The notes beneath the pieces were generated by a model. It made no database searches, had not been told where the DNA came from, and worked only from the letters and a program-made list of their open reading frames with translations. The translations under genes and the position numbers were made by a program. A stretch of 64,000 nucleotides of DNA from a virus. The stretch is from the IMG/VR virus record IMGVR_UViG_3300019762_000006, positions 25,999-89,998 of that record, one strand, 5' to 3'. Below, in pieces: positions 10,401-15,000 of the stretch; position 1 is the stretch's first letter; the number at the start of each line of letters is the position of its first letter.

Positions 10401-12002
10401 AGTAAACTACTAAAAGAGGGAAAAGATGCTGGTAAAGAGTTGGGGTTTGTAGATATGTATATACCAAACAAAGTGTACAAAGATAGATTCGGTGGTAAGA
10501 TTGCAGATAATATGCCAGAGTGGAAAAAGTTGCTACACTTAGATATAGATAGTGGCACAATAAAAACAGTAGGAGATGTGATCAATGCAACATTTGGAAC
10601 AGCAATTGAAACAACATTCGATAGTAGACTAGGATTCGTAGATAGAAATAGGGATGCAGTAAAAACCCTAGAAATAATAGCGTTCGAAGCATACCAAGTA
10701 AGACTGGCCGAAGAAGTAGAAAACTTGCTAAATAGTAGATACGGGGAAGCAAAGCATGAAGGTGAGTCCTACAAAATAAGTAAAGATGACTTGGTAAACA
10801 TAAACAACAAACTGACTGCACAAGGGTATGGGCATGACATCGTATGGGATGAAGCAGGTAGAGATAGAGTAAACCAAACACTTAACAAGACTGGTACTAA
10901 AGGGGGATTACATTCAAGTAGTGTGACAGTTGGTGACACAAAAGTTGGAGGGCAGATAAAACAGAATAAAGCAATAGTAAATACAGGTGCTGCATCAACA
11001 ATACCAATCCATGCAATAGATGGTAGGATGATACTAGAAACACTAAATAGAGAATTAAAAGGTCCGCTAAAGGGTAAATACCATGGTGGGAATGTGTATG
11101 ATGCTGTAGTGCTAAGTGCTAACAAAGCAATGCTAACAGACACAGCAGACTACTACAATAAGAATATGATTGAAATAGGGTTCAGTAGATCAATAGTAGC
11201 AGACCAAATGGCCCTAGTAGAGAATATGCTAAGTACAATGAGTGACAAACAAAAAGTAAAGATGTTCAATAGATTAGGTCTAAGACCTGAAGGAGATACT
11301 AGAGAAGACTTTACAAAAGAAGTAAACAGACTTCACTTAGGAACTGGTAAAATGCTGGAGAGACTAGAATTAGCTGAAACAACGAATAAGGAAAGATTAG
11401 TAAATAGTGGTAAAGAGTACATGTCTGGACATCTGTACCAAATGGGTTCAGGAGTAGTAAATATACCTGCTAGTGAGGTAAGAGCTAAAGAGTTCCCAGC
11501 AATAACAACACTTAAAACAATGCTAGAAAATAAGATGATTGCTGATAGAAAACAAACAGCTGAGGAATTTGCTAGTAAGACAACAGGACAGCCAGACTAT
11601 GTGCTAAACTTGTATGATATAACACAGAATACACAAGTTAAGTCAAAAGCAAATATAGCACAAATGGTGAATAAAGGCGATAAGCTAAAAGTTAGTGATA
11701 ACTTAACAGAATCTCTAGGTAGCAAAGATACAGTTGAAATAGTAGGTTCAGTTGGTAGTGAGTTAAACAATAGTCAAAAGTGGTGGTTAAATAATATGAA
11801 AAATAATATACTTGCATCAGATGCTGGTATAGTAGCTAATAGCAATACATCAGAAAAGACAATGAGTGAATCAGGTAGAGAGCTAATTGAGGGTGTGTGG
11901 GTTAAACAAAAAGAAGCTAAAAACAAGCTAGAAAAAGATATAATAACTCCAAGTGAAGCATTCAAAAAGAATGTAAATAACAAGATAGAATGTAAGGAAT
12001 AG
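4449..12002 (+). CDS. virion-encapsidated single-subunit RNA polymerase (N4 vRNAP-like), N-terminal and catalytic part, with N-terminal thermonuclease domain
   Basis: SGRF (T/DxxGR), motif A EIDAITSG, motif B RSIAKSPVMVYIYG, IDGRM, motif C NVYDAV; N-terminal DADT/RVEGIDAPE/YGR/GLW SNase motifs. Confidence 0.9.
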   Translation: MPTQEELLNAVFVNTNNTPKQTNNSQYVYDADTLYQNGNGYRVEGIDAPEMPSYALKQERIAKALKSKLGRFVSKATAGEAAKLEAELSTLNFNGIDSGFQETSFNDNQLQPTYQETPQSDSKGVYGRDILNNPAYQNELVAKGYAIPAFDNQTPEGQALMLNAKKQKLGLWADPEYAAEMEAVANKRGTSTVEEIPEYNILRGVGSAGLDVAAKVGGLIGETIESAGEGIGVDAVKNSGTALQNAFTEFQRKQYGKEITGYVSRNVDELSAEIDDTIKKDGYMSAIAKAVTDPRSLEVLANSVPEMIALAASVGGMAVANVNNNINMAEAELGRKLDTKEKVLSASASIVGTYMDRFGDKLALSGMNPTKEALKTVINKMSQEGKNTLSKKYGKEILTISSAPLRLASAGAIEGLTEKGQTMLETAAQTPRVFEEGFTKEELDESNVAGVLGVTMGTQMASPKVVYDVATKTVPSLPKASKDILERATETEAQRKVRETTEVSAPIREAAIDSTLKGDTDSVVKSAEEMHGKLAKELDGSAPKKYTYNVVLSNALNRAHESNDDTAIANVYKTIGDLNNRKDVDFKASEMVDSRMYEATKEFLDLVNKNDLTATDKMEAINLGKKIGENATEQSASKSNILTEVRLMKEQLEKEKKSLKSVKGSEDFGGPIDKLMKIVDDYLENRDAEKVNAQVMDLGYIELDPTSGVLKADPNRPGLRVYAKELEKQMLNPNTNKNLLDKKVVASGQVTIPKLAKFAKSRLDKLNPYKDNSAYQTSSLLNTLKAENEQMSNTIVELVKIASKLEIDKEIKDKYVAKLKEAGKSAVEANKEMLRREKLINDTTKPSGNGQLAFQVDPDGTESIRLVSGESNTKVADVVDGKVVPIAQEQNAEQVADKPLSNASIVEKAPTKESMKEEGVRNAKNVTTAPKPKQTVVQWLTAQLDEMVDNQKKTMVEAAKEINDYLSAQGLDKDTITKYNVILRKLVKDRVDEKKTPLNKVRARVSELDTELSKLVENVEDMNMLVHVKEYYKRKLGEVQAERTTLNKVLDRMEAELTKRTGTNRVSKLRELADKLIKGMVRALQEVKKRINLVNAEHDRLTSELNEISTMIKTIEEEYIGTVEPEIETRQTSIGEITRYEDSAYGPMVELGNKRVNARRTLSPTGKVVQSPSSALNDAMEVLKQDKIEELNAELTELASEGITSLGAKILKRNLENFPIVSPVHKILTSGYDSVFGKLEGNIFKDADKLLEVLPKGFKDFFASDKENEQALIDNFQTMSKYIENTKIGDIKIGSNRISKHIDQFGLVMNQKLGFVPIERQLIVGDRVKIGETTYLIGKIEGDKATVTIPGKKGTSTKKLSEFQSVREKQPESFPVDIIELIGTVKDDKLEIDEQTETILKFYTAKMVTDTQAMIGKILSFDESEMGLYLGITDPDEQIKVKQDAQNGLVNSASVRSDIGNEVYQALGIKLTKNTPEFTEESLTSALGVLVQAIAVDNGTMSMDKLTAEKNTNLIQVNRAAVDKALEVDGRGTEQLAKAMSKLQYLNEARNRPLPKTAKPKRKTSRNVMNTKIPMDALNNDKLNDMEQIAYTISPKLQMWLAMDETEALKARGYVEVESAGLHISEQDAQQARNDKLVREWEILKIFAQATKNKKFYLDWGQTVSGRFTILNDIQYQESKLHREFVVADNSTETIDVNDADSRQMLEASILQGLDMDPDKLSTETASANFNKLFKVTDKGIEVTEKGAVKTAYEALRAGKVDADAMAEVFADSEGHHGISSIELLVDWNKAIVDGTTLETHANLEIDAITSGMILTLLQIGTDKAIELAEKGGIYTADRAKELEAYVKHWLGDVTFTPGALIEAGKKHASAIESGTDKKLLKGQETNLQSDTVFKDLYSTIGVGMIEEVQTYKERLLAKSDKTESEMKQLAMLNEIGELNLKNIRSIAKSPVMVYIYGATVNSIKKKLTYSLGIDTLVKTIKKASKLLKEGKDAGKELGFVDMYIPNKVYKDRFGGKIADNMPEWKKLLHLDIDSGTIKTVGDVINATFGTAIETTFDSRLGFVDRNRDAVKTLEIIAFEAYQVRLAEEVENLLNSRYGEAKHEGESYKISKDDLVNINNKLTAQGYGHDIVWDEAGRDRVNQTLNKTGTKGGLHSSSVTVGDTKVGGQIKQNKAIVNTGAASTIPIHAIDGRMILETLNRELKGPLKGKYHGGNVYDAVVLSANKAMLTDTADYYNKNMIEIGFSRSIVADQMALVENMLSTMSDKQKVKMFNRLGLRPEGDTREDFTKEVNRLHLGTGKMLERLELAETTNKERLVNSGKEYMSGHLYQMGSGVVNIPASEVRAKEFPAITTLKTMLENKMIADRKQTAEEFASKTTGQPDYVLNLYDITQNTQVKSKANIAQMVNKGDKLKVSDNLTESLGSKDTVEIVGSVGSELNNSQKWWLNNMKNNILASDAGIVANSNTSEKTMSESGRELIEGVWVKQKEAKNKLEKDIITPSEAFKKNVNNKIECKE

Positions 12003-15000: not shown

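Follow-up and report, generated by a model that had tools for sequence, protein, structure and literature searches.

Paired terminal cysteines at the junction of a split N4-type virion RNA polymerase suggest a head-to-tail disulfide

The stretch of DNA analysed here (the window) comprises 64,000 nucleotides (nt), positions 25,999 to 89,998 of IMG/VR virus record IMGVR_UViG_3300019762_000006, an 89,998-bp N4-like podophage genome whose microbial-mat label comes from coded runs of 2018, perhaps from one campaign. It encodes a virion RNA polymerase (vRNAP) of the N4 type in two adjacent open reading frames (ORFs), called here ORF1 and ORF2 (Table 1). The initial annotation had pointed out that each of them contains a single cysteine (Cys) and that the two Cys lie at the facing tips of the split, and both translation and a script count bear this out (residue 2515 of ORF1 and residue 3 of ORF2). 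Together, ORF1 and ORF2 amount to 3851 residues, with both Cys at the junction and the remainder Cys-free. If one Cys per protein is assumed, the probability that both fall at most 3 residues from the facing ends by chance is about 2.7e-6. The upstream genes had also been described as Cys-free, and the four ORFs of the plus strand that precede ORF1 (9-659, 725-2503, 2541-3062 and 3064-4392) indeed contain no Cys. When the whole 89,998-bp genome was scanned, the six consecutive ORFs up to and including ORF2 were found to hold 2 Cys in total among 5,680 residues; the mean Cys content of the 63 tabulated ORFs of the window is 1.19% (225 of 18,851 residues).

The remaining details given initially for the junction, namely two genes lying 2 nt apart in different frames and an AAGGA ribosome-binding site belonging to ORF2, were found again. 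ORF2 is read in frame -1 relative to ORF1 and the two genes are translationally coupled. A TAA codon at 11993-11995 closes the ORF2 frame three codons upstream of its ATG; the N-terminus of ORF2 is therefore unambiguous, since no space is left for an earlier start, and there is no room for a conventional frameshift site. No indels were seen in this stretch in contigs of four microbial-mat metagenome runs, a comparison to which X3 and most of X4 contribute small shares. The junction itself is bridged without indel by a contig of a strain that is ~93% identical (X4 record 19, 11759-12105), which answers the reservation that the stop codon might be an assembly error.

Table 1. Features of the split vRNAP locus (coordinates of the window)
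Feature	Position	Strand	Remarks
ORF1	4449..12002	+	2517 residues; N-terminal region and T7-like RNA polymerase domain of N4-type vRNAP
ORF2	12005..16009	+	1334 residues; vRNAP C-terminal domain (CTD) as a protein of its own
Cys2515 codon of ORF1	TGT, 11991-11993	+	Sole Cys of ORF1; third residue from the C-terminus, tail KIECKE-stop
Cys3 codon of ORF2	TGT, 12011-12013	+	Sole Cys of ORF2; head MGCSA
Shine-Dalgarno sequence of ORF2, AAGGA	11994-11998	+	Within the final Lys-Glu codons of ORF1; 6 nt 5' of the ATG
ORF1 stop codon, TAG	12000-12002	+	Followed by a 2-nt spacer and the ORF2 ATG at 12005
ORF1 segment matching the polymerase part of the vRNAP profile	8733..11936	+	Residues 1429-2496; 21 residues remain after it
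HEINH (HExxH) motif of ORF2	12890..12904	+	Residues 296-300; marks the first CTD subdomain
Three upstream ORFs	725..4392	+	592, 173 and 442 residues; Cys-free; placed where N4 has its ejection-protein genes, a likeness by position

Profile comparisons relate both proteins to the N4-type vRNAP family (PHROG 2206). The polymerase segment of ORF1 matches positions 1062-2033 of the PHROG 2206 profile (E 3.2e-42) and residues 213-1299 of ORF2 match positions 2269-3378 (E 3.5e-69). A profile of ORF2 homologues (alignment A4) also matches the N4 vRNAP structures (9pnr etc.) over residues 2535-3450 with E 8e-54; the profile of ORF1 homologues (alignment A3) gave no match in the PDB. ORF1 thus contains the T7-like polymerase domain of an N4-type vRNAP and ORF2 the CTD with its HExxH motif, in which H296, E297 and H300 are invariant or nearly so in an alignment of 40 sequences. 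The single chain of ~3500 residues and the total absence of Cys, both usual for N4-type vRNAPs, are not found here. In N4 gp50, the single HExxH is at residue 2228, within the C1 subdomain (2124-2375). As compared to N4 gp50 (Schitoviridae; structures 9pnr and 9pnt), the proteins of the window have a homologous polymerase domain and CTD, are depleted in Cys and are preceded by Cys-free genes in the same order, but their chain is cut at the site of the linker between the two domains, with a Cys at both of the ends so created.

The N4 vRNAP was reported to consist of a polymerase domain (1007-2101), a 23-residue linker (2102-2123) that is invisible by electron cryo-microscopy (cryo-EM) and a CTD starting at residue 2124 (PMC13434306). 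Residues 25-3499 of N4 gp50 align almost 1:1 with positions 5-3405 of the PHROG 2206 profile, and ORF1 therefore stops about 20 residues past the end of the polymerase domain. By these sequence coordinates, the cut between ORF1 and ORF2 falls at, and replaces, the disordered linker between polymerase and CTD of N4. Mapping onto fused relatives at the level of residues failed, as the first 115-250 residues of the split CTDs gave no alignment to fused proteins and pairwise BLAST against N4 covered the conserved cores alone; the position of the split is thus that given by the PHROG profile. Searches against Pfam assigned no family to ORF1, ORF2, the ORFs upstream of them or six small Cys-rich ones, and thus revealed neither a thiol oxidase nor a thioredoxin of the phage. 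A split intein or another form of trans-splicing was considered for the junction and rejected, there being no Pfam (Hint) family and just 2 residues after Cys2515 and 2 before Cys3.

The terminal Cys are conserved among close relatives. A word-indexed search for ORF2 relatives returned 106 proteins of 1131-1867 residues; with the C-terminal 618 residues of ORF1 as query, 76 further proteins of 1466-3060 residues were obtained. A Cys is present at residue 2-6 in 105 of the 106 ORF2 homologues (at residue 3 in 90), which contain 106 Cys among 166,040 residues; the sole protein without it, P0091 (1131 residues), appears to be truncated at its N-terminus. All 76 ORF1 homologues have a Cys 0-4 residues before the C-terminus, with 79 Cys among 199,229 residues. 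The tails around this Cys differ (KIECKE, ECAKG, NCRKG, TMENC, IIKDC, LIEGC) and since the flanking residues vary between subgroups, the Cys alone is the conserved element. The column of Cys2515 is nearly invariant in alignment A3 and that of Cys3 is invariant in alignment A4; in alignment A1, of 20% mean identity, the latter is conserved to at least 90%. No fused form was found among the close relatives, the search with the ORF1 region having spanned 1384-4405 residues and its longest return having 3060. Among GenBank phages, neither blastn with the junction region nor tblastn with the ORF1 tail gave a match and the head of ORF2 gave weak matches to Vibrio N4-like phages only; the close relatives had therefore to be drawn from metagenomes. 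It should be noted that most of the longer ORF2 homologues (~1600-1690 residues, alignment A4) contain an insertion in their N-terminal region with a second HExxH (HExxHAG consensus), which is missing from the ORF2 of the window.

The same arrangement was observed in the distant family. A HMMER search with residues 1-1200 of ORF2 against 1.84 billion representatives gave 313 matches, and all counts for the distant family refer to the best 150 of these 313. Twenty-four of them are shorter than 1000 residues and are fragments. In the class of 1000-2999 residues, a Cys occurs within the first 7 residues in 97 of 111 proteins, at residue 3 in 61 and at residue 4 in 23; it is the sole Cys in 93 of the 97, which altogether contain 6 non-terminal Cys in 145,968 residues. 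By contrast, 14 of the 15 proteins of at least 3000 residues have no Cys at all. The N-terminal Cys is retained at the tip of the chain despite inserts of 1000-1900 residues, among them a Dda-like helicase, ahead of the conserved CTD. The Cys therefore tracks the terminus and not a fold.

The region ahead of the conserved CTD ranges from ~60 to ~1900 residues and seems to accommodate additional domains. In P0195, P0198 and P0327, the Dda-like helicase (PHROG 325, E down to 5.8e-75) lies between the N-terminal tip and the CTD, and P0195 keeps its Cys at residue 3. Another protein, P0145 (2317 residues), has its Cys at residue 4 of an odd hydrophobic extension (MFFCKKNYVII…), which looks like an over-extended gene call rather than a further split.

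As stated in the initial annotation, the N4 vRNAP is a single Cys-free chain of about 3500 residues: gp50 has 3500 residues and no Cys, and gp51 and gp52 contain none either. The fused vRNAP of Alteromonas phage PT15-A5 (3495 residues) is also devoid of Cys, and so are the three distant fused proteins (3/3) obtained in a search for longer homologues. The comparison suggested at the outset thus came out as predicted, split homologues keeping the paired terminal Cys and fused homologues lacking both. A FastTree phylogeny was computed on the conserved part of the CTD with 123 rows, excluding proteins of less than 1000 residues and those whose match stops short of query position 1150. The fused proteins are scattered over several places of this tree, between split forms, and no fewer than 7 changes are required to account for the fused label. 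Nested in a well-supported clade of Cys-bearing split forms are P0294 and P0324, full vRNAPs that match in two stretches. When independent pairs of split and fused proteins were compared, the Cys went with the split in 4 of 4, which is below significance (sign test p 0.125).

The junctions were then read in the DNA of 13 IMG/VR loci, two close to the window (L001 and L002) and eleven (L004-L014) from a clade ~22% identical to ORF2; L008 and L012, being near-identical, are taken as one. In 13 of 13 loci, a Cys lies 0-4 residues before the C-terminus of the ORF 5' of the CTD gene, and the product of the CTD gene has one at residue 2-6. Seven of the eleven loci of the ~22%-identical clade carry three consecutive genes. 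There, the big ORF (2278-2550 residues) has one Cys, which is its final or penultimate residue. The middle ORF (213-877 residues) contains exactly two, one at residue 3-6 and the other 0-4 residues before the C-terminus; the CTD ORF contains one, at residue 3-6. Counting the window, the 13 loci and the Alteromonas phage AD45-P1 described below, Cys flank both sides of 22 of 22 junctions and no outer terminus has any. Additional internal Cys occur in ORF1 of L001 and in the big ORF of L006, and the CTD ORF of L004 would start MCMSC if the earliest start is taken. Across the junctions, spacing varies between -13 and +29 nt and the relative frame is not constant; the Cys codon is TGT or TGC, and the Shine-Dalgarno sequence lies 5' of the Cys codon at some loci and 3' of the stop codon at others. 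These results strongly support a pairing rule: each split is flanked by a pair of Cys, and fused chains are without it.

The middle ORFs gave no vRNAP match and may encode co-injected cargo. Those at L008 7159-9792 and L007 9254-9895 have NADAR matches below the Pfam cut-off (E 1.1e-5 and 1.6e-4, respectively), and no family was found for those of L009, L011 and L005.

A split vRNAP has been described previously. In Alteromonas phages AD45-P1 to P4, the vRNAP is encoded by two genes and the stop codon was re-sequenced after polymerase chain reaction (PCR) (Garcia-Heredia et al. 2013, PMC3821669). Both polypeptides were visible on gels in that study, in indirect support of packaging and ejection for a vRNAP split in this way. 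The window shows a split of this AltAD45 type, with the polymerase part and the CTD in adjacent genes separated by a genuine stop codon. In the cultured ~104 kb podophage vB_AmaP_AD45-P1 the vRNAP is likewise carried by adjacent genes, ORF127 and ORF126, and the GenBank translation shows that the big ORF ends with HCKQ and the CTD ORF starts with MTIC, each motif containing the only Cys of its protein, 7 nt separating the genes. The CTD ORF matches the CTD profile with E 2.5e-209; single-sequence phmmer gave no match between AD45-P1 and ORF1 or ORF2, which are too distant. Unlike ORF2 of the window, this CTD (L016 15624-19853) has the N-terminal Cys but no HExxH. To its discoverers the Cys indicated a protein that is not injected, and they made no mention of the pairing (PMC3821669).

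The closest structural precedent comes from cyanophage A4. Cryo-EM of its virion revealed, in the pre-ejectosome, a disulfide between Cys1715 of gp27 and Cys5 of gp26 that stabilises the gp27 C-terminal helix where it enters gp26 (PNAS 2025, PMC12002296). In the record of Anabaena phage A-4L, gp27 (1717 residues) and gp26 (1114 residues) are the products of adjacent genes and each contains a single Cys. The likeness to ORF1 and ORF2 lies in two big ejection proteins from neighbouring genes, the sole Cys of the upstream one 2 residues before the C-terminus and that of the downstream one at residue 5, and the terminal Cys pair of the gp27-gp26 type is present in ORF1/ORF2. The two pairs show no sequence similarity by phmmer or with the CTD profile (E up to 10), and gp27 and gp26 match other PHROGs, not the vRNAP family. 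Cyanophage A4 also differs in being a 42-kb T7-like phage of the Saffermanviridae, for which the available part of the paper describes no virion polymerase (PMC12002296). The work on DEV reported suppression of Cys throughout the ejection operon in 191 schitoviruses and took up the idea that this averts periplasmic disulfides, and inter-subunit disulfides were reported in virions of crAss001, which infects an anaerobic Bacteroides host (PMC11445570, PMC10172136). No statement of a Cys-pairing rule for split vRNAPs was found in the literature searched, subscription journals and supplements lying outside the search.

In N4, the interface between polymerase and CTD is weak and the CTD is autoinhibitory, and the vRNAP has been proposed to traverse a tail channel of ~35 Å as beads on a string (2026 structure paper, PMC13434306). 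We consider it probable, at about 0.72, that the C-terminus of ORF1 is joined to the N-terminus of ORF2, head to tail, by an inter-chain disulfide. The thiols of Cys2515 and Cys3 would form this bond in the virion and the split would thus be repaired after translation. Such a disulfide would restore a near-linear, beads-on-a-string chain able to exit as a single thread by the narrow channel of the tail, and Cys placed at the extreme termini would keep the joint as thin as two extended chains. As the cytoplasm is reducing, the halves would have to associate non-covalently first, the bond forming in the particle or after lysis. As throughout the family, the remaining protein is Cys-free, presumably to avoid wrong bonds. 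In the cytoplasm of the next host, the disulfide could be reduced and the polymerase released from its autoinhibitory CTD, a step to which we give somewhat less than even odds.

Formation of the bond in split vRNAPs, its timing after assembly and its role in threading are what we infer. A role in chain continuity, rather than in stabilisation of a folded interface, is suggested because the Cys lie near the termini, the Cys at the tip survives large inserts and middle pieces carry one at each end. The proposal made initially, that the split halves are re-joined by a terminal disulfide, is therefore upheld in part: the pairing rule is strongly supported, also by the three-piece relatives with Cys at each junction and none at the outer termini, the bond itself comes by analogy and from the A4 precedent, and the redox-released linker is a conjecture drawn by analogy. 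In A-B toxins, one inter-chain disulfide holds two chains together through a narrow channel and cytosolic reduction frees the enzymatic chain. Proteolytic nicking of a single product gives rise to the toxin chains; here there are two genes and no homology, and a shared mode of action is possible.

Several points weigh against a head-to-tail disulfide. The support for the bond in split vRNAPs comes from a precedent that is an analogy and not a homology, given the absence of sequence similarity to A4 gp27/gp26. Assembly takes place in the reducing cytoplasm, where co-packaging needs a non-covalent contact, so that the need for a later bond is an argument only. The two halves of AD45-P1 run as separate bands of 270 and 175 kDa, the main text giving no gel conditions (PMC3821669). 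The label of one relative, 'MAG: ... [Prevotella sp.]', hints at habitats without oxygen, in which oxidation would be less certain. The test on independent pairs comprises 4 pairs only, on a tree made by FastTree only. P0320 (4394 residues) is the only fused vRNAP-like representative with Cys, of which it has five, all internal. Finally, the N-terminal Cys is missing in 14 of the 111 mid-length representatives. Among these, P0245 is a start miscall, its cluster mate P0334 beginning 13 residues earlier with MSTC; the contigs of P0201 and P0198 barely exceed the gene, P0257 and P0261 have no Met start, P0305 consists of polymerase and CTD, and P0287, P0203 and P0216, possibly fragments, fall with fused proteins in the phylogeny. 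The missing Cys is unexplained in P0218/P0333, P0200, P0295, P0327 and P0224.

The main rival to the disulfide is that the same termini are tied by a shared metal ion, as in a zinc clasp or zinc hook in which other ligands or a second copy of the pair could take part, or by other thiol chemistry. Such a tie would explain the pairing rule equally well, and could form during assembly in the reducing cytoplasm, where disulfides do not; moreover, the CTD has a conserved HExxH, and for DEV gp71-C a zinc-binding motif has been predicted. However, one Cys per chain makes a poor metal site, and the Cys stays terminal while its distance to the HExxH ranges from ~60 to ~1900 residues. No HExxH partner is shown at the junctions between big and middle ORFs, and the CTD of AD45-P1 has the Cys without the HExxH. 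The sole solved pair of this kind, that of cyanophage A4, is a disulfide. We regard the metal tie as unlikely. The terminal Cys could also form disulfides with other copies or other virion proteins, in a network that anchors them to the capsid rather than head to tail. N4 packages multiple vRNAP copies (PMC13434306) and further virion proteins of the window genome contain Cys, but a network does not account for a single Cys at each end made by a split, with none at the outer termini and none in fused forms, although fused vRNAPs would need anchoring just as much. The A4 partner, moreover, is the product of the neighbouring gene, and we find such a network less likely still than the metal tie.

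The evidence from the junctions bears more heavily on explanations in which the Cys pair has no role, either as a by-product of nucleotide constraint at a coupled stop and start, or because the split is an artefact of assembly or is overcome by frameshifting into a fused product. The Shine-Dalgarno sequence does overlap the final ORF1 codons, and at L001 the genes share an A-rich overlap where a +1 slip is imaginable. But spacing, frame, codon and position of the Shine-Dalgarno sequence all vary while the Cys persist, which excludes an explanation at the nucleotide level. In the window, the TAA three codons upstream of ATG in the ORF2 frame leaves 7 nt that contain no slippery run, and the contigs of the four runs are free of indels. 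The stop codon of AD45-P1 was verified by PCR and its two polypeptides were seen on gels (PMC3821669). Variable junctions with constant Cys, the absence of indels and the verified AD45-P1 stop led us to reject the frameshift, assembly-error and nucleotide-constraint readings, which we consider highly improbable.

The head-to-tail disulfide is our preferred reading. The split vRNAP (AD45-P1) and the terminal disulfide between adjacent ejection proteins (A4) were already known; the novelty lies in bringing the two together as a rule for a very large and mainly uncultured group, three-piece forms included. The pairing rule ties split vRNAPs to A4, the sole structurally proven terminal disulfide, and re-reads the view of 2013 that the Cys-bearing half of AD45-P1 'will not be injected' (PMC3821669). 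How a protein of at least 3500 residues leaves the capsid through a channel of ~35 Å is an open question for N4-like phages (PMC13434306). As splits are flanked by Cys, fused chains lack them and middle pieces have them at both ends, chain continuity itself would matter for packaging or ejection. A wider and rather speculative extension, which we would not call likely, is that terminal Cys pairs are a reversible substitute for the peptide bond, by which podophages, N4-like and others, assemble trains of separately encoded proteins (polymerase, then optional cargo such as middle pieces or CTDs with a helicase, then the CTD), thread them as one chain and uncouple them by reduction in the cytoplasm of the host. 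If so, injected cargo would be identifiable by a C-terminal Cys/N-terminal Cys signature in neighbouring genes that are otherwise Cys-free. The signature of paired Cys offers a way to find co-injected proteins in uncultured phages.

Two further observations concern the surroundings of the junction. The N-terminus of ORF1 (4449 to about 5000) contains a staphylococcal-nuclease-like motif (…GIDAPE…), for which residues 1-1000 gave no Pfam support at E up to 0.01. Directly 3' of ORF2, a gene on the plus strand (16242-17126) encodes an HNH/homing-type endonuclease (PHROG 681, E 9.6e-71, also PHROG 559) that carries 9 Cys, in contrast to the Cys-free block upstream.

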